Below, piece after piece: positions 35,137-59,078 of a stretch of DNA of 59,499 nt. The DNA lies in IMG/VR virus record IMGVR_UViG_2874945390_000008. The stretch is one strand, 5' to 3'. Every line of letters starts with the position of its first letter. Position 1 is the stretch's first letter. Made by a program: the position numbers and the translations under genes. The stretch is from a virus (lineage: Duplodnaviria > Heunggongvirae > Uroviricota > Caudoviricetes). Below the pieces are notes generated by a model, which had not been told where the DNA came from, made no database searches, and saw only the letters and a program-made list of their open reading frames with translations.

Positions 35137-35211
<75 letters not shown>

Positions 35212-35214
35212 ATA

Positions 35215-35290
<76 letters not shown>

Positions 35291-35292
35291 GC

Positions 35293-35369
35293 TGGCCCAC
35301 CACCGAGGACTCGAACCTCGCACCGTCAACTTAGAAGGTTGATGCTCTATCCGGATGAGCTAGTGGTGG
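35293..35369 (-). tRNA. tRNA-Arg (anticodon UCU)
   Basis: rc folds with acceptor CCACCAC/GTGGTGG, anticodon loop CTTCTAA, T-arm CGAGGTTCGAGTCCTCG, CCA end. Confidence 0.75.
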
Positions 35370-35370
35370 T

Positions 35371-35447
35371 TGGTGGCCCTTGCTGGACTTGAACCAGCGA
35401 CCTGGCGATTATGAGTCGCTCGCTCTGACCAACTGAGCTAAAGGGCC
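35371..35447 (-). tRNA. tRNA-Ile2-like (anticodon CAU; tRNA-Met not excluded by anticodon alone)
   Basis: rc = GGCCCTTTAGCTCAGTTGGTCAGAGCGAGCGACTCATAATCGCCAGGTCGCTGGTTCAAGTCCAGCAAGGGCCACCA, close to ileX as I recall it. Confidence 0.8.
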
Positions 35448-36212: not shown

Positions 36213-36470
36213 AACGACCTCGCGTTTCGATGGTTTTTAACTCACCACCTGCGACGCCAATCGCTGGGTGGTGAACTGTGCAGGGTTGGCGTAACCGGTC
36301 GAAACATCCGGCGAGTCTCTCAACTCCCCCACACAGCCCACCATAAATCGCGAATGTGACTGTGCTTAGCGCATAAAAAAACCGCCAGCGCGGTTATGCA
36401 CCGTTTTGAGGTAGCCTGAGTTTAACGGACACTCCTTCCTGAAATAGAATGGCATCAGAAGGAGCTAATA

Positions 36471-36808: not shown

Positions 36809-37627
36809 ATGTGTCAGGTATTTGGTGTATCCAGGAGCGGTTATTACAACTGGGTACAGCATGAACCCTCAGACAGAAAACAAAGTGATGAGCGGCTAAA
36901 ACTGGAGATTAAGGTGGCACATATCCGCACTCGCGAAACATATGGAACCCGGCGGCTCCAGACGGAGCTGGCAGAGAATGGCATCATCGTTGGTCGTGAC
37001 CGACTGGCACGTCTTCGTAAGGAGCTAAGGCTACGCTGTAAGCAGAAACGCAAGTTCAGAGCGACTACGAACCCGAACCACAATCTGCCAGTTGCGCCAA
37101 ATCTGCTGAACCAGACGTTCGCTCCTACAGCACCAAATCAGGTCTGGGTGGCGGACCTGACGTATGTTGCCACACAGGAGGGATGGTTGTACCTCGCTGG
37201 CATCAAAGATGTTTATACGTGCGAAATTGTCGGCTACGCCATGGGAGAGCGCATGACAAAAGAGCTGACAGGTAAAGCCCTGTTTATGGCGCTCAGGAGC
37301 CAGCGCCCACCTGCCGGGCTAATCCACCACTCTGATCGAGGTTCACAGTACTGCGCATACGATTACCGGGTCATACAGGAGCAGTTTGGTCTGAAAACAT
37401 CAATGTCGCGTAAAGGTAACTGTTACGACAACGCTCCGATGGAAAGCTTCTGGGGAACGCTGAAAAATGAGAGCCTGAGCCACTATCGTTTTAATAACCG
37501 GGATGAAGCCATCTCAGTAATACGGGAATACATTGAGATTTTCTACAATCGTCAGCGTCGTCACTCTCGTCTGGGGAATATCTCCCCGGCAGCCTTCAGG
37601 GAAAAATATCATCAGATGGCTGCTTAA
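36809..37627 (+). CDS. IS600 OrfB (made as OrfAB by -1 frameshift; track start is the first in-frame ATG)
   Basis: DDE transposase ...WVADLTYVATQEGWLYLAGIKDVYTCEIVGYAM...; -1 frame is open from the A-run. Confidence 0.85.
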   Translation: MCQVFGVSRSGYYNWVQHEPSDRKQSDERLKLEIKVAHIRTRETYGTRRLQTELAENGIIVGRDRLARLRKELRLRCKQKRKFRATTNPNHNLPVAPNLLNQTFAPTAPNQVWVADLTYVATQEGWLYLAGIKDVYTCEIVGYAMGERMTKELTGKALFMALRSQRPPAGLIHHSDRGSQYCAYDYRVIQEQFGLKTSMSRKGNCYDNAPMESFWGTLKNESLSHYRFNNRDEAISVIREYIEIFYNRQRRHSRLGNISPAAFREKYHQMAA

Positions 37628-37674
37628 AAAAAGAACAAATGGTAGTGTCCGCTATTGCCAGTACACCTCATTTC

Positions 37675-37735
37675 GATATCCGGGACGCCAATCCCGACGC
37701 CAGATTTTGCTGGCGCGTGAGGAATATAGCCCCGG
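37675..37735. repeat. ~60-bp conserved element, copy 1
   Basis: catccgggacgccaatcccgacgccagattttgctggcgcgtgaggaatatagccccgga also at 40940..41000; contains hairpin cgccag-attttg-ctggcg. Confidence 0.7.
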
Positions 37736-39764: not shown

Positions 39765-39920
39765 TTACTTCCTGGATTCGTAGTCTACGAAGACAGCGAC
39801 CTCCGTCTGGCCGGTTCGGATTCGTACCTCACAGAGGTCTTTCCTCGTTACCAGTGCCGTCACTATGACGGTTAAACAGATGACGATCAGGGCGACTAAC
39901 ATCGCCTTTTGCTGCTTCAT
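39765..39920 (-). CDS. hok: Hok/Gef-family type I toxin
   Basis: MKQQKAMLVALIVICLTVIVTALVTRKDLCEVRIRTGQTEVAVFVDYESRK; track ORF has a 19-codon in-frame upstream extension. Confidence 0.85.
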   Translation of the reverse strand: MKQQKAMLVALIVICLTVIVTALVTRKDLCEVRIRTGQTEVAVFVDYESRK

Positions 39921-40149
39921 AGCCTGCTTCTCCTTGCCTTCCGGCACGTAAGAGGCTAACCTACATGTGTCTAGCATGAAATTGGCCTCAGATTAATGTT
40001 AAGCGTCTTGCAGGACGCGTAATGTTAACTGGGGCTTCTCATCTGCCTTTTGGTGTTCATGCCTGAGACAGATAGCCTCAAGCACCCGCAGCAATTCTAC
40101 TTAACTTCCCTTTCACCGCAAATCATTTTATCCCCGGTGGTAATGTTCT

Positions 40150-40735: not shown

Positions 40736-40889
40736 CATAACGATAACTCCGTACATTTGGAAATTATCGCCACCGACGACGCCAATCGAACTGGTGGCGA
40801 ACTGTGCAGGGTTGGCGTAACCGGGTACGGAAACCGGCGAGCCTTTCGGCTCCCCCACACAGCCCGCCATAAATCGCGAATGTGACTGT

Positions 40890-40915
40890 GCAAACGATAT
40901 GAAAAAAGACGCGGA
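40890..40915 (-). terminator. Hairpin plus T-run upstream of copy Y
   Basis: Minus strand AGACGCGtccGCGTCTtttttc. Confidence 0.4.
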
Positions 40916-40939
40916 CGCGTCTCATATCGCTCCGTAAAC

Positions 40940-41000
40940 ATCCGGGACGCCAATCCCGACGCCAGATTTTGCTGGCGCGTGAGGAATATAGCCCCGGATT
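40940..41000. repeat. ~60-bp conserved element, copy 2
   Basis: Same sequence as 37675..37735. Confidence 0.7.
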
Positions 41001-46511: not shown

Positions 46512-47812
46512 CTGAGGAATCCCCAGAAAACGAGACAGACATAGCATTATGTGATCTACTGATTTGTGCCAACAATTCAATGAGATCACTGCTATGCCTG
46601 TTCATAAAGTATGTCAGAATTTCTTCCGGGATGCCTTAGCACCATTTCATCAGTACCGACAAAATGCCCTGATGGATGCCACAGTGGCGTTAATCAACGG
46701 AGCATCTCTGACGCTGACCAGTATCGGACGTTTTTTGCCGGGTAATGCACAAGTTAAGAATAAGAGCAAACGTATTGATCGCCTCATGGGTAATGAGGCG
46801 CTCCATCGCGATATTCCAATGATTTTCAGGAATATCACTTCAATGCTGACACGGCAGTTATCTTTATGTGTAATAGCCGTAGACTGGAGTGGCTATCCCT
46901 CCCAGGAGCATCATGTTCTTCGTGCCAGCCTTCTGTGTGACGGGCGTTCCATTCCGTTATTGAGTAAGGTTGTTCCTTCTGAAAAACAAAATAATCCATT
47001 GATACAACATGATTTCCTTGATTCCCTTGCTCAATCCCTGCCCCCCGATGCCAGGGTTATTATTGTCACGGATGCTGGATTTCAGAGCGCATGGTTTCAC
47101 CATATTACTTCTCTGGGCTGGGATTTTATTGGTCGGATCAGAAATAACGTTCAGTATTGCCTCGATAACGCGCCTGAAAGATGGTTAAAAGTGTCGGATA
47201 GCCCTGAATGTAAAACACCGGAATATATGGGGGCTGGAAGGCTGGTTAAAGAAAGGAAAAAAAGCATCCGGGGGCATTTTTACACCTATAAGAAATCGGC
47301 AAAAGGGCGAAAAAAGAAACGTTCGAAAGGTCAGAGTGGTTTAAACAAAACAGACAAAGAACAGAGCAAATCAGCAAAAGAAGCCTGGTTGATCTTCAGC
47401 AGTACAAATGACTTCAGAGCGCGAGAAATCATCAAGTTATACAGTCGGCGAATGCAGATAGAGCAAAACTTTCGTGATGAAAAGAACGGGCGCTTCGGAT
47501 TTGGTCTTCGGGCCAGCAAAAGTCGTTCAACAGGAAGAATTCTGGTTCTGAGTCTGCTGGCAACGTTGAGCACTATCGTAATGTGGTTACTCGGTTATCA
47601 CGCTGAAAATAAAGGGTTACACCTGAAATATCAGGCTAACAGCATTAAATCCCGGCGGGTTATCTCATATCTGACGTTAGCGAAGAATGTTCTTCGACAC
47701 TCGCCACTTATTTTAAGACGAACAGTACTGAGCACAGTTCTAAACCATCTGTCCAGAACCTACCGAAATATGGTGCTGGTTTATTAGCAGTAATTTTGTG
47801 GGGATCCCTCAG
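46512..47812 (+). mobile_element. IS10-like element (IS4 family), copy B, intact
   Basis: 1301 bp; same ends as copy A; single 407-aa transposase ORF. Confidence 0.85.
46564..47787 (+). CDS. IS4-family (IS10-group) transposase
   Basis: MCQQFNEITAMPVHKVCQNFFRDALAPFHQYRQ...VTDAGFQSAW...YSRRMQIEQNFRDEK... Confidence 0.8.
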   Translation: MCQQFNEITAMPVHKVCQNFFRDALAPFHQYRQNALMDATVALINGASLTLTSIGRFLPGNAQVKNKSKRIDRLMGNEALHRDIPMIFRNITSMLTRQLSLCVIAVDWSGYPSQEHHVLRASLLCDGRSIPLLSKVVPSEKQNNPLIQHDFLDSLAQSLPPDARVIIVTDAGFQSAWFHHITSLGWDFIGRIRNNVQYCLDNAPERWLKVSDSPECKTPEYMGAGRLVKERKKSIRGHFYTYKKSAKGRKKKRSKGQSGLNKTDKEQSKSAKEAWLIFSSTNDFRAREIIKLYSRRMQIEQNFRDEKNGRFGFGLRASKSRSTGRILVLSLLATLSTIVMWLLGYHAENKGLHLKYQANSIKSRRVISYLTLAKNVLRHSPLILRRTVLSTVLNHLSRTYRNMVLVY

Positions 47813-47921: not shown

Positions 47922-48128
47922 GAATCACCTTCCTAGGTCGTTTTGCCTTACGATATTCGTCATAAACTTTGGGGTCGTACTGAAGTTCCCCGCCAGATGC
48001 CTCTTGCAGGCGCATCGCGCGACCTTCAGGAACCAGTTCCCCCCATGCAGGCTTGCCAGCCTAACTCCTGCGGCATTGGCAAGCTTTGTTTTGCTGCCAA
48101 AAAACGCTATAGCATCAATTTTCAACAT
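47905..48128 (-). pseudogene. dicC: Cro/DicC-like regulator with a 1-bp frameshift in a G-run
   Basis: MLKIDAIAFFGSKTKLANAAGVRLASLHGG then out of frame; adding one G restores ...ELVPEGRAMRLQEASGGELQYDPKVYDEYRK. Confidence 0.55.
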
Positions 48129-48204: not shown

Positions 48205-48612
48205 ATGAAAAACGAAACCTTCGGTGCTCGCCTCTTACATAGGCGTAAAAAATTAAAACTGTCTCAGGCCGCATTAGGTAAGCTGGTCAAAGTGGCTCAC
48301 GTAACAATTTCTCAATGGGAAAGAGATGAAACACAGCCGGCGGGGAAAAGATTATTCGCACTGAGCCAAGCGCTTCAGTGCTCACCGGCTTGGCTTCTTT
48401 TTGGGGATGAAGATAAACAACCAGGCGAACCGATCCCGGATAATCAGCCAGCCATTCTGACAGAAGATCAAAAAGAGTTACTTCAACTGTTCGACGCACT
48501 GCCTGAGTCAGAGCAAAAGGCCCTGTTGTCAGAGATGCGTGCTCGAGTTGAAAATTTCAACAAACTTTTTGAAGAACTACTCAAAGCTCGCAAAAGAAGC
48601 GCAAACAAATAA
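48205..48612 (+). CDS. dicA: DicA-like HTH repressor
   Basis: MKNETFGARLLHRRKKLKLSQAALGKLVKVAHVTISQWERDETQPAGKRLFALSQALQCSPAWLLFGDEDKQP...; divergent from the cro-like gene. Confidence 0.8.
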   Translation: MKNETFGARLLHRRKKLKLSQAALGKLVKVAHVTISQWERDETQPAGKRLFALSQALQCSPAWLLFGDEDKQPGEPIPDNQPAILTEDQKELLQLFDALPESEQKALLSEMRARVENFNKLFEELLKARKRSANK

Positions 48613-48817: not shown

Positions 48818-48973
48818 ATGAATACTATCGATCTTGGCAACAACGAATCTCTGGTGTACGGCGTGTTCCCCAACCAGGACGGCACATTCACCGCCATGAC
48901 GTATACCAAAAGCAAAACGTTTAAAACCGAAGCTGGCGCACGTCGTTGGTTGGGAAGACATTCAGGTGAGTAA
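48818..48973 (+). CDS. ydfA: YdfA-like small protein
   Basis: MNTIDLGNNESLVYGVFPNQDGTFTAMTYTKSKTFKTEAGARRWLGRHSGE. Confidence 0.6.
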   Translation: MNTIDLGNNESLVYGVFPNQDGTFTAMTYTKSKTFKTEAGARRWLGRHSGE

Positions 48974-49363: not shown

Positions 49364-50516
49364 AATAGCTGCGCTTAATACCGCTACACTTTTGCCAGTC
49401 CATGTTTGCCTCCGGGGAATGGGCTGACGGTTTCCATAAAATGGCGAACTTTTTTCAACAGTTGCCACATTGAGCGGCACTGATGATTACGCGTTATTGT
49501 GTCGTGAAGTGCCTGCCATAGCCGTTCAACATGATTCACCCATGGCGAGTAAACCGGCTGATAAATGACCCTGAACTTCGGGTTCTCCTTCAGCCAGCTC
49601 TGTGTTTCCCGGCTTTTGTGGATAATGTAGTTGTCCACGATCAGCGTGATGGTTTTCGCCCGACGGTATGTCGCTTTAAGCCGCTTCAGCAGGCTGATGA
49701 ACAGCGCCGAACTTTTGCTGTTGCCGCCCACATAGCTGACTTTACCTGTCCCGCTGTGCAGCGCTCCGGCCAGATAATATTTTTCATTCTGTCCCGGCGT
49801 GACCACCCGTTTTTGCTGTCCGCGCAGTTGCCAGTCCGCACCGATTTTGGGATGAAGATGGATATCCACTTCATCTTCATAAAAGACCGGATGCTCTGCG
49901 CTGCATTCGTCCAGTGCTTTATGGATTGCTGCCATCTTTTCATCTTTATGCGGGTCACGGATACGCAGAGTTGGCGCAGCCCTTCGCCACACAATCCCCG
50001 CAGACGGCAACCAGCGGCGAACGGTTCCGGCATTTAACTGGCAACCGGTTATCTCATTGATTTTTATTGCCAGCAGTTCTGTACTCCAGCGTGAACGCTG
50101 GTAGCCAAAGTCGCCGGGAGAATGTTTTACCAGCTCACGTAACAGTGTGCAGATATGCTCAAACGGCCAGCGACGGGCACGCCCGGCAGGTAATGATTTC
50201 AGTCCCTCAACACCCGACTGCGTGAACCAGTTAATCCAGCGTCCAACAGAGGAACGGGCGCAGCAGAGCGTTCTGGCAACGTCGCTGACACGGTCGCCCC
50301 GGTGCAGCATCAGCATGGCAGTCAGTCTGCGGGCATAATTTTTATCGTGTGTTTTATGGATGGCTTTCTGCATCAGGCGTCGTTCGTCACGGGAAATTGG
50401 TGCTATGATCGGCATTGCTCAGTCCGGTTGGTGATTTGTTTTGATTTGGCGATTGATCAGATCGCACAATCCGGGCTAAGTTCCCTCAAAGTGATCTACT
50501 ATTCCGCGCAGCTATT
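49364..50516 (-). mobile_element. IS630 (1153 bp)
   Basis: Terminal inverted repeats aatagctgcgc / gcgcagctatt; TA duplication in a CTAG context (49362..49363 and 50517..50518). Confidence 0.85.
49384..50415 (-). CDS. IS630-family transposase
   Basis: 343-aa ORF MPIIAPISRDERRLMQKAIHKTHDKNYARRLTAMLMLHRGDRVSDVAR... Confidence 0.85.
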   Translation of the reverse strand: MPIIAPISRDERRLMQKAIHKTHDKNYARRLTAMLMLHRGDRVSDVARTLCCARSSVGRWINWFTQSGVEGLKSLPAGRARRWPFEHICTLLRELVKHSPGDFGYQRSRWSTELLAIKINEITGCQLNAGTVRRWLPSAGIVWRRAAPTLRIRDPHKDEKMAAIHKALDECSAEHPVFYEDEVDIHLHPKIGADWQLRGQQKRVVTPGQNEKYYLAGALHSGTGKVSYVGGNSKSSALFISLLKRLKATYRRAKTITLIVDNYIIHKSRETQSWLKENPKFRVIYQPVYSPWVNHVERLWQALHDTITRNHQCRSMWQLLKKVRHFMETVSPFPGGKHGLAKV

Positions 50517-50779
50517 TAGTGAGAGCATATATTTATGAAGCCCTTCGTAATCCTCTGGCTCAGCATTATATAGTTCTACTCTGGCGAGATACGTTGGCAT
50601 ATTCATTTCCTTACTGGTTGTGCGAGAACTTCAGTAAAGATACCACCAAAGCCCGGAGGTGGTGAAATAAAACCGGGCACAACACGAAGGCGCATTTCCG
50701 GTATCCATAAAGAGTCGGTCTTGTCTGTTAAATTTAAATGGTGGGAGTGCGCCTCCGGTTGTAAATAACGACATTGCTG

Positions 50780-50835
50780 TGTGAAGTACCAGTTGGCGGC
50801 ATCGGTTTAATTGCTGGCTGATGTCCGCCCTTTTT
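50780..50835 (+). ncRNA. dicF: DicF-like small RNA (candidate)
   Basis: ...agttGGCGGcatcggtttaattgctggctgatgtCCGCCcttttt resembles my recollection of DicF; lies downstream of dicA-ydfA-ydfB as in Qin. Confidence 0.4.
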
Positions 50836-51105
50836 AAAGTGAATTTTGTGATGCGGTGAATGCGGCTCAGCGCACGCGGAACAGTTAAAACAGTAAGGAA
50901 AATCCCTTATTCCGGCGTTAATTATTAACTGGTTAACGTCACCTGGAGGCACCAGGCACCGCATCAACAAAGTTCACTTCGGTGATGAAAGGAAAGAGAA
51001 AATGTTGAATGTAGCTATTGAAAACCAGAACGGGTGGAATTATAGTGCACCTGCACCTCATAAAACGGGTGCCGGGATTGCTACCCCGAAGTCATTCACG
51101 GCGCA

Positions 51106-51128
51106 TAACCGCGCTCAGGCGGTTTTTT
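51106..51128 (+). terminator. Hairpin plus T7 terminator upstream of the Rha-like gene
   Basis: aaccgcgctcaggcggttttttta. Confidence 0.5.
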
Positions 51129-51295
51129 TATGCGTAATGCACAGCCACATTCAAATTATGGTGGGGCGTGCGGGGCAGTCGCAAGACTGGCCGGGTTCCG
51201 TGATGACCGGTTGTAGCAACCCTGTACGTCTCACCACCCATGAGATTGCTACCTCCGGTGGTGAGTTAATCACATTCATCGCGGAGGCTGCCATC

Positions 51296-51844
51296 ATGGC
51301 TACTACCCTTTCTCACCCTTGTGTAACCGTAGAAAACGGTCGCGCTGTCACTACGTCTGTTGCGGTTGCAGAGTTCTTCCACAAACGACACGACAATGTG
51401 TTACGTGCCATCGCAAATATTGAATGCTCAGATAAATTTACTGCCCTCAATTTTGAGGCGAGCGAATACACCGACTCAACCGGGCGCAAACTCCCAATGT
51501 ACCAAATCACCAAAAACGGCTTCGTTTTCCTGGTGATGGGCTTCACTGGCAAAAAAGCCGCCGCATTCAAGGAAGCCTACATTGCTGAGTTCGACCGCAT
51601 GGAGGCCGAACTGCGCCAGAATAACACCCCACCTGCTGACAAGATGATTCCGGGTGATGGTCGCACTCTGGTTGTTCACTTCGACAAATTCGGCAATGTC
51701 GAATTCACCGAAACCGTTCCTGATGGCGCACTGGTCTGTACCCTGGAGACTTTCCGGTTTTATCTGGAAAAACAGGGATGGACTCTTGTTAACCGGGGCG
51801 CAATTAAAAATATGACTGTGGAACAATTACTTTCTTTAAAATAA
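51296..51844 (+). CDS. Rha-family phage regulatory protein
   Basis: ...TTSVAVAEFFHKRHDNVLRAIANIECSDKFTALNF...; start at ATG 51296 after GGAGG; track ORF extends upstream across the terminator. Confidence 0.65.
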   Translation: MATTLSHPCVTVENGRAVTTSVAVAEFFHKRHDNVLRAIANIECSDKFTALNFEASEYTDSTGRKLPMYQITKNGFVFLVMGFTGKKAAAFKEAYIAEFDRMEAELRQNNTPPADKMIPGDGRTLVVHFDKFGNVEFTETVPDGALVCTLETFRFYLEKQGWTLVNRGAIKNMTVEQLLSLK

Positions 51845-51860
51845 AAATGGAGCTACGGAT

Positions 51861-52142
51861 ATGAACCCTATGCTTGATTATTGTTTTACCTCTGCACCTC
51901 AGCAGACCATAACACACACCGGAATCAAAAAATTGTTATGGATAATCAAAAAAACCCTCCAGCAGAAAGGTGATCCCGATTTAATTCCCTGTGCTTATGG
52001 CCTGTGTGACAGACAAGTAAGCCCTGATAAGGCTTACTCTGCTGAACTTATTTACATGCACGGAACCATGATGAGGAAAAAGAAACGCAAATATTGTAGT
52101 GAAATCTGTGCCGAAAAAGACCAGATGGCACACGAACTTTAA
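51861..52142 (+). CDS. Hypothetical Cys-containing small protein
   Basis: 93-aa ORF with CAYGLC...YCSEIC pattern. Confidence 0.4.
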   Translation: MNPMLDYCFTSAPQQTITHTGIKKLLWIIKKTLQQKGDPDLIPCAYGLCDRQVSPDKAYSAELIYMHGTMMRKKKRKYCSEICAEKDQMAHEL

Positions 52143-57146: not shown

Positions 57147-57335
57147 ATGTATAAAATTACAGCCACTATTGAAAAGGAAGGTGGTTCTCCTGCCAGCTGG
57201 ACAAGATACTCAAAGACAAAACTAACGAAATCAGAATGCGAAAAAATGCTCTCAGGGGAAAAAGAAGCAGGCGTTTCCAGAGAGCAGAAAGTAAAACTGA
57301 TAAATTTTAATTGCGAGAAACTTCAGTCCTCGTGA
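57147..57335 (+). CDS. Hypothetical small protein
   Basis: MYKITATIEKEGGSPASWTRYSK...; ATG after GGAGG. Confidence 0.35.
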   Translation: MYKITATIEKEGGSPASWTRYSKTKLTKSECEKMLSGEKEAGVSREQKVKLINFNCEKLQSS

Positions 57336-58765: not shown

Positions 58766-58896
58766 TTTTAACGTAAATGGATTGTTAAATGTATTTTGGT
58801 TGTGATATAACCAAAAAAGACCGGAATACAGAAATTCGAGTAAATTTCGGGGAATTTCGGGGAAGCATTTGTAACTAATTGATTTCAAATGCAATT

Positions 58897-58999
58897 AAAA
58901 AAAGACCGAATACGATTCCTGTATTCGGTCCAGGGAAATGGCTCTTGGGAGAGAGCCGTGCGCTAAAAGTTGGCATTAATGCAGGCTTAGTTGCCTTGC
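58897..58999 (-). ncRNA. sdsR: SdsR/RyeB-like small RNA
   Basis: Minus strand GCAAGGCAACTAAGCCTGCATTAATGCC...CCCTGGACCGAATACAGGAATCGTATTCGGTCTTTTTTT as I recall SdsR; terminal hairpin plus T-run. Confidence 0.55.
58904..58929. other. Putative attR core overlapping the sdsR 3' hairpin
   Basis: Direct imperfect repeat of 376..401; tandem aatttcgggg motif at 58845..58864 between int and the core. Confidence 0.4.
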
Positions 59000-59078
59000 C
59001 CTTTAAGAATAGATGACGACGCCAGGTTTTCCAGTTTGCGTGCAAAATGGTCAATAAAAAGCGCGGTGGTCATCAGCT

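Follow-up and report, generated by a model that had tools for sequence, protein, structure and literature searches.

A DicF-like prophage hairpin is best read as part of a rare allele of the small RNA KilS

Which small RNA is encoded by a terminator-like hairpin that lies at the position of dicF in a lambdoid early-left operon? The hairpin (positions 50780-50835) is found in a 59,499-nt stretch of viral DNA, the whole of which is referred to here as the window, and a first-pass annotation made from the letters alone had taken it for a DicF-like small RNA. Our best reading is that it belongs to a rare allele of KilS, an sRNA of the Rac prophage, distinguished by a new loop and an altered seed and lacking the ftsZ-silencing sequences of DicF. 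With a probability of roughly 0.7, we take the feature for the 3′ half of a KilS-type sRNA gene in a defective Rac-like lambdoid prophage.

The hairpin and terminator string quoted in that annotation is present at 50791-50835, where agtt (50791-50794) precedes a stem base formed by GGCGG (50795-50799) and CCGCC (50825-50829) and a short tail of 5 U only. The 62 nt from 50775 to 50836 fold into a 13-bp hairpin of −23.8 kcal/mol (z = −3.61). Because none of 200 dinucleotide shuffles folded as well and a consensus scan called the hairpin with its T5 run terminator-like, the feature at 50795-50835 is real and more than a chance fold. In the predicted structure GGCGGCAUCGG (50795-50805) is paired with CUGAUGUCCGCC (50818-50829) around an 8-nt loop. 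The hairpin has its stem in common with KilS and the base of that stem also with DicF, and the loop segment GUUUAAUUGCUG is specific to the allele class of the window. No second copy of the candidate was found in the window.

The genomic position is that of dicF. As had been claimed, the operon context is the same, with homologues of DicA and YdfA encoded upstream in a lambdoid early-left operon, a terminator present and a conserved spacer following (Table 1); the 144-nt spacer hardly differs from the one between dicF and dicB in phage Tritos, in which DicF is annotated. DicF, a 53-nt antisense sRNA of the Qin dicBF operon, is a positional homologue that stands immediately upstream of the same spacer, and both loci carry a GGCGG/CCGCC-based terminator hairpin with a U-tail. 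Two blocks further upstream, GTTAAATTT and GTGCGCYTCCGGTTGT (the latter being the 5′ hairpin block), are common to the window and to the region upstream of canonical dicF, the source of the 190-nt form of DicF made by RNase III; in canonical dicF they are followed by ~110 nt that kilS lacks. As judged from sequence, dicF and kilS appear to share ancestry beyond the hairpin.

Alignment to the 58-nt DicF plus tail gave 42 identical columns out of 60 (70%). A permissive search of 851 nt (50450-51300) aligned the whole of the Rfam DicF model RF00039 to 50780-50830, where the score of 28.6 bits (E = 5e-4 for this local search) falls short of the 48 bits set for gathering; the same model scored canonical DicF of phage Tritos at 72.5 bits and the K-12 KilS hairpin at 39.1 bits, and DicF was not among the 17 RNAs detected at Rfam gathering thresholds in the whole window. 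DicF regulates ftsZ, xylR and pykA with a contribution from Hfq, using residues in its 3′ half to pair with ftsZ and residues at its 5′ end to pair with xylR and pykA (Balasubramanian 2016). The 5′ seed UUUCUGGUGACG for the latter two targets is absent from the window, where the aligned region reads UGUGUGAAGUACCAG, and the loop segment ACUCCGUG, which in the model of Balasubramanian 2016 pairs with the ftsZ Shine-Dalgarno sequence, is replaced. In an accessibility-corrected duplex scan, canonical DicF paired with ftsZ −28..−3 at −23.3 kcal/mol (−8.7 net), whereas the same scan gave no DicF-like pairing of the window hairpin with the ftsZ ribosome-binding site, its best site having a net energy of +6.8 kcal/mol. 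Plain RNAduplex comparisons of whole sRNAs with ftsZ were discarded, the long duplexes being no better than those of shuffles even for canonical DicF.

With other sequences in place of both the DicF seed and the anti-ftsZ loop, and with no comparable site returned by the scan, a DicF-style block of ftsZ translation by the window RNA is considered unlikely, and the mechanism proposed below would include no such antisense action. The hairpin could still be a functional if divergent DicF that represses ftsZ translation and causes filamentation when expressed, a reading consistent with the full-length RF00039 match, the shared locus and spacer, and a short GGUUU in the loop that, on a reading of the sequence, could pair with AAACU at the ftsZ start region. 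The score under the gathering threshold, the missing xylR/pykA seed, the replaced Shine-Dalgarno-pairing segment and the gap in net pairing energy speak against it, however, and make it very improbable. The proposed resemblance to DicF thus held for the locus, the hairpin base, the T-run and the spacer, but not for the Rfam threshold, the 5′ seed or the ftsZ loop; identity with DicF was rejected on the score and the two missing parts, and by its sequence the hairpin is classed as a weak relative of DicF and not a member.

The nearest known relative on sequence comparison, missed by the first-pass annotation, appears to be KilS of the K-12 Rac prophage. KilS is a 98-nt sRNA from the kilR 5′ UTR of the Rac prophage of E. 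coli K-12 that was recovered by Hfq RIL-seq and verified by northern blot, with an independent promoter inferred from global TSS data (Bar et al., 2021, PMC8175672). It had three RIL-seq interactions, without validated regulation, and yncL was listed as its partner. A literature search by the name KilS turned up only this study, which makes no mention of DicF (Bar et al., 2021, PMC8175672). The curated MG1655 record places the ncRNA kilS (b4833) at 1418405-1418502, between sieB and kilR in Rac, and this K-12 gene is a UGUGUGUAGU-seed allele with the loop AGUUUUUUUCUUGAAGUUCG.

Aligned to the 98-nt KilS, the window is identical in 86 of 102 columns (84%), including all of the first 43 nt, and positions 50640-50783, which begin ~100 nt upstream of the kilS 5′ end, differ very little from the promoter and 5′ part of K-12 kilS. 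The two share a Rac-type early-left operon locus, the promoter region, the 5′ hairpin, the terminator stem, the T-run and the downstream spacer. They differ in the seed, which is closely related (UGUGUGUAGU in KilS, UGUGUGAAGU in the window) but carries one U-to-A substitution and a 4-nt insertion (ACCAG context) in the window; in one A-to-G change of the terminator stem, where pairing is kept as G-U; and in the terminator loop, where GUUUAAUUGCUG replaces the KilS loop and is 7 nt shorter in the alignment. The downstream gene differs as well: kilR follows in K-12, whereas no KilR homologue was found downstream of the window RNA and an Ash/Rha ORF containing isrK and C4 matches stands there instead. 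Because the seed carries the substitution and the insertion and the loop is replaced, the targets of the window allele may differ from those of KilS or have been lost.

Table 1. Features of the predicted KilS-type RNA and its surroundings in the window.
Feature	Position	Strand	Basis or remark
DicA/CI-type repressor	48205-48612	+	61% identical to K-12 DicA
YdfA/YdaF DUF1391 protein	48818-48973	+	92% identical to YdfA
IS630-family element, 1153 bp	49364-50516	-	Junctions by comparison with L001 and L063, loci without the insertion
Extended -10 promoter-like element TGTTAAATT	50726-50734	+	Identical to K-12 Rac upstream of kilS
Predicted KilS-type small RNA, ~95 nt	50741-50835	+	5′ end by homology to K-12 kilS (b4833), 3′ end by terminator T-run
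5′ hairpin GGAG-UGCGC-CUCC	50744-50756	+	Fold and alignment; identical in K-12 KilS
Seed region UGUGUGAAGUACCAGUU	50778-50794	+	Alignments and fold; directly 5′ of terminator hairpin
Terminator hairpin GGCGGCAUCGG-loop-CUGAUGUCCGCC	50795-50829	+	Fold, terminator scan, per-allele folding
T5 run of intrinsic terminator, would-be U-tail of the RNA	50831-50835	+	Sequence and terminator scan; tail identical in K-12 KilS
Conserved structured spacer	50836-50979	+	Common to dicF-dicB, kilS-kilR and the window locus
280-aa ORF with Phage_ASH and Phage_pRha domains	51002-51844	+	At the dicB/kilR position of other prophages

Since K-12 kilS has the same promoter region and the same first 43 nt, the RNA is likely longer than the interval originally noted, which would cover only the 3′ 56 nt of the predicted transcript (Table 1). 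The predicted RNA folds into four hairpins (−31.8 kcal/mol), and its parts would run from the 5′ hairpin through an A/U-rich middle and the seed UGUGUGAAGUAC to the GC-based terminator hairpin with its U-tail. The seed region corresponds to UGUGUGUAGUCC of KilS and, by position, to the 5′ seed of DicF; in the MFE fold most of 50776-50793 is paired in a weak hairpin, so that the seed is not predicted to be fully single-stranded. A putative promoter lies 7 nt upstream of the base that matches the K-12 kilS 5′ end: TGTTAAATT, comprising TG (50726-50727) and TAAATT (50729-50734), reads as an extended -10 element that would be correctly placed for this start. A -35/-10 consensus scan did not call a promoter at this site.

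The window RNA probably has its own promoter, unlike DicF in the Qin dicBF operon, which is reported to lack an internal promoter. Across the loci compared, kilS-type loci have TGTTAAATT, with the TG of the extended -10 shape, and Qin-type dicF loci (including L002 and L009) have CGTTAAATT, with CG. This one-base difference may be why KilS has its own TSS while DicF is processed from the dicBp transcript; CG in place of TG at canonical dicF loci would fit the report of no promoter inside the Qin operon.

The transcription start, Hfq binding and targets of the window RNA are carried over by analogy with K-12. In the mechanism that we propose, the RNA would be transcribed from its own promoter, as in K-12, would bind Hfq, as K-12 KilS does, and would base-pair with host mRNAs through the seed next to the terminator, the yncL 5′ UTR being the one candidate. 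Pairing with yncL was predicted by a scan of windowed duplexes corrected for opening energies. The best KilS-yncL site joins KilS nt 38-47 (UGUGUGUAGU) to ACUAUACACA at yncL −37..−28 in 10 contiguous pairs, a run for which the rough chance probability in a comparison of 98 x 115 nt is ~0.05. The window allele keeps and extends this predicted site, with a duplex energy of −14.4 kcal/mol (−7.0 net) against the K-12 yncL sequence, used in place of that of the host. Such retention of a predicted site fits a conserved seed.

To view the locus independently of the RNA, genome and viral contig collections were surveyed with an exact 32-mer of the downstream spacer, an anchor that does not involve the RNA sequence. 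The 138 loci collected contain 51 distinct hairpin alleles. A GC-based hairpin with a T-run is always found upstream of the anchor, and all 51 alleles fold, with compensated stem changes among them (e.g., GGUGG/CCACC and GGCGGGUAUC/GAUACCCGCC) in per-allele folding. The latter was used in place of RNAalifold, which predicted no pairs on 20 hairpin alleles, differences in loop length having misaligned the 3′ arm. Around the hairpin, 5′ seeds of the DicF type UUCUGGUGAC, the UGUGUGUAGU type and the AUGUUGAUUACC type reassort with at least six types of loop and with dicB, kilR or Rha as downstream gene. By these comparisons, dicF, kilS and the window allele are versions of one locus that precedes a conserved structured spacer.

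The 62-nt window allele was found unchanged at seven further loci, among them those of Shigella flexneri SFBU1023 and E. coli ECMA0423, and alleles of its type are followed by Rha in six of eight informative loci and by kilR in one. Three different 5′ regions are found joined to a nearly constant loop, GUUU[A/C/U]AUUGCUGG. This hints that the loop of the window allele (GUUUAAUUGCUG) and its relatives are more than filler, and the loop may confer a second target specificity.

Recombinant alleles also exist (L131, L089, L104 and L021 among related loci). In some of them a KilS-type promoter and 5′ part are joined to a DicF-like anti-ftsZ loop (ACUCCGUG), and one KilS-type RNA has a Qin-type upstream block; such natural 'domain swaps' could help to map the roles of the modules.

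The spacer itself (Table 1) has invariant arms, a hypervariable core, inner hairpins and a 10-bp closing helix (UGAUGCGGUG/CACCGCAUCA). The consensus fold of 16 diverse copies contains 34 pairs, four of them with compensatory changes, and sub-threshold matches to the Rfam family STnc100 (28-38 bits against a gathering score of 47) were found in dicB, kilR and Rha contexts. The spacer forms a structured element of its own. When a 571-nt query spanning it (50440-51010) was searched, 4,734 of 5,426 E. coli genomes matched, at a median of 2 places per genome.

The variability of seed and loop can also be accommodated if the hairpin is only a terminator or attenuator of the early-left operon, placed before dicB, kilR or ant/Rha, without any trans-acting role for the RNA that it releases. 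Free variation of loop and seed with a retained stem is what termination alone would produce; the shape is that of a canonical intrinsic terminator, always followed by the conserved spacer and a gene that may do harm, and KilS has few RIL-seq partners (PMC8175672). Against this, stable RNAs are known from two alleles at this locus, DicF and KilS, the former regulatory and the latter detected by Hfq RIL-seq and northern blot. The recurrence of one loop with three 5′ regions argues against free drift, and a dedicated promoter 54 nt upstream of the hairpin would be odd for a pure attenuator. Terminator and sRNA roles are also compatible. A terminator-only function appears unlikely, and a KilS-type sRNA gene remains the preferred reading. 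The terminator may nevertheless have a second role that is plausible alongside the first: it would limit read-through into the Ash/Rha ORF, which would depend on read-through because its start lies upstream of a promoter-like site at 51018-51046 for isrK.

In another reading, a DicF or KilS gene in a dead prophage would be a decaying remnant that gathers mutations and is neither expressed nor selected. The prophage is Rac-like, with YdaE-like and RecE genes after the Ash/Rha ORF, and is defective; its replication side appears to be cut off. The statement that an IS630 element is inserted just upstream was confirmed by its junctions (Table 1) and by a transposase matching NF033545 (258.5 bits). 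The element splits a minus-strand ORF of 107 aa without a Pfam match, which is intact in L001 and in E. coli FDAARGOS_944. Since it lies outside the KilS-type promoter, ~210 bp upstream, no effect on the RNA is required. Decay would be in keeping with this split neighbour and with an IS4-family element abutting a cro-like gene, with the lack of both dicB and kilR downstream, and with the rarity of the allele. Yet the promoter, the 5′ hairpin, the stem and the T-run are all intact, and the A-to-G change in the stem keeps G-U pairing. Furthermore, the differences from KilS consist of a replaced loop block and a seed insertion rather than scattered point mutations, and the same 62 nt are unchanged in the seven other loci, from different hosts and viral contigs. 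A dead remnant is therefore a distant prospect. The IS4-family transposase gene occupies 46564-47787 and the cro-like gene 47925-48128.

In a search of 5,426 complete E. coli genomes with a 99-nt query, 1,564 matched, so that ~29% have a KilS-type copy; ~1,500 of the 5,426 matched at 80-90% identity, a range that includes the K-12 allele (84.9%). The window allele is rare, found at ≥95% identity in ~26 of the 5,426 genomes and also in Shigella flexneri. Because it occurs as exact copies in the seven other loci and at ≥95% identity in these ~26 genomes, the allele is a maintained one and not a product of strain-specific decay. Among the RefSeq E. coli records listed, no annotated feature lies under the match, the curated kilS of MG1655 excepted; in Rfam 15 no model reaches KilS or the window allele at threshold, and a full-text literature search with the sequence strings of the allele found no paper.

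Taken alone, the locus is one more unannotated prophage sRNA allele. Its interest lies in connecting DicF, the textbook division-inhibitor RNA, with KilS, a barely studied RIL-seq sRNA, as alleles of one locus in which seeds, loops and downstream toxic genes are reassorted. Should target specificity reside in the variable loop and seed, prophage content would alter host post-transcriptional regulation strain by strain. We tentatively suggest, as a possibility with the odds still against it, that the dicF/kilS position is a modular recombining sRNA cassette in which a conserved promoter and 5′ block, terminator stem and spacer frame an exchangeable seed and loop, each combination having its own set of targets in the host or in rival phages. 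DicF (ftsZ, xylR, pykA) and KilS (yncL) would then be two of at least six specificities, and the window allele an uncharacterised one that travels mainly with the Ash/Rha-isrK-C4 anti-repressor module.

Downstream of the spacer, the further claims of the first-pass annotation were borne out: no dicB was found, the next gene is the Rha-domain ORF, and the separate terminator at 51106-51128 is present and is that of an isrK match. Two Rfam matches lie within the ORF, isrK at 51053-51129 (64.8 bits) and C4 at 51154-51241 (79 bits), with the promoter-like site noted above called by the consensus scan. IsrK- and C4-type RNAs (P1/P7, Gifsy; RF01394, RF01695) are likewise prophage small RNAs with terminator hairpins, belonging to an anti-repressor control region, and the two matches stand 220-320 bp downstream of the candidate in the same direction of transcription. 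They are nevertheless unrelated to it in sequence and structure and are separate genes, one of them with the promoter-like site. In PGAP-style annotation the ORF product is named a 'Rha family' protein, but its Phage_ASH match (residues 14-104) covers the same DNA (51041-51313) as the isrK and C4 RNAs; either these RNAs lie within a coding region or the Ash protein family derives in part from translated RNA genes. Translation from an in-frame ATG at 51296 would yield a protein with the Rha domain alone.

Possible targets inside the window were also considered. Exact words complementary to the RNA numbered 23 at 10 nt (9.4 expected from shuffles), 7 at 11 nt (2.5) and 1 at 12 nt (0.55) over the 59.5 kb, counts only modestly above chance, and they were rejected as evidence for a target within the window. 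The single complementary 12-mer (5880-5891) pairs with the part common to all KilS alleles, and there were no complementary words in the downstream operon. Within the transcript 50836-51900, the best site for the sRNA pairs its GC-rich 5′ hairpin with 51477-51496 in the Rha ORF; this pairing was set aside, since shuffles equal it in 2% of cases and random pieces of the window in 7%, and the 5′ hairpin is also present in alleles without Rha.

The window contains three C4, three isrK and two c4-a1b1 target matches in Rfam (36264-36348, 37627-37729, 40790-40991 and 51053-51241), and so holds several control modules of the P1/Gifsy anti-repressor type, which presumably stem from more than one prophage. 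The copy at 51098-51269 shows 76% DNA similarity to 36237-36404 and is the only such copy with similarity to another. Other RNAs at gathering score have sites at 57153-57331, 58893-59037, 1918-2100, 39915-40087 and 35140-35447. Among the gathering-score RNAs are RalA (207 bits), which is the antitoxin to RalR, a toxin of Rac, the Shigella chromosomal sRNA CssrB and a sok antitoxin. The SraC/RyeA and SdsR/RyeB pair is found at the end of the window, where it probably marks the chromosomal flank of the prophage, and four tRNA genes, of the kind usual in lambdoid late regions, were detected at the same thresholds.
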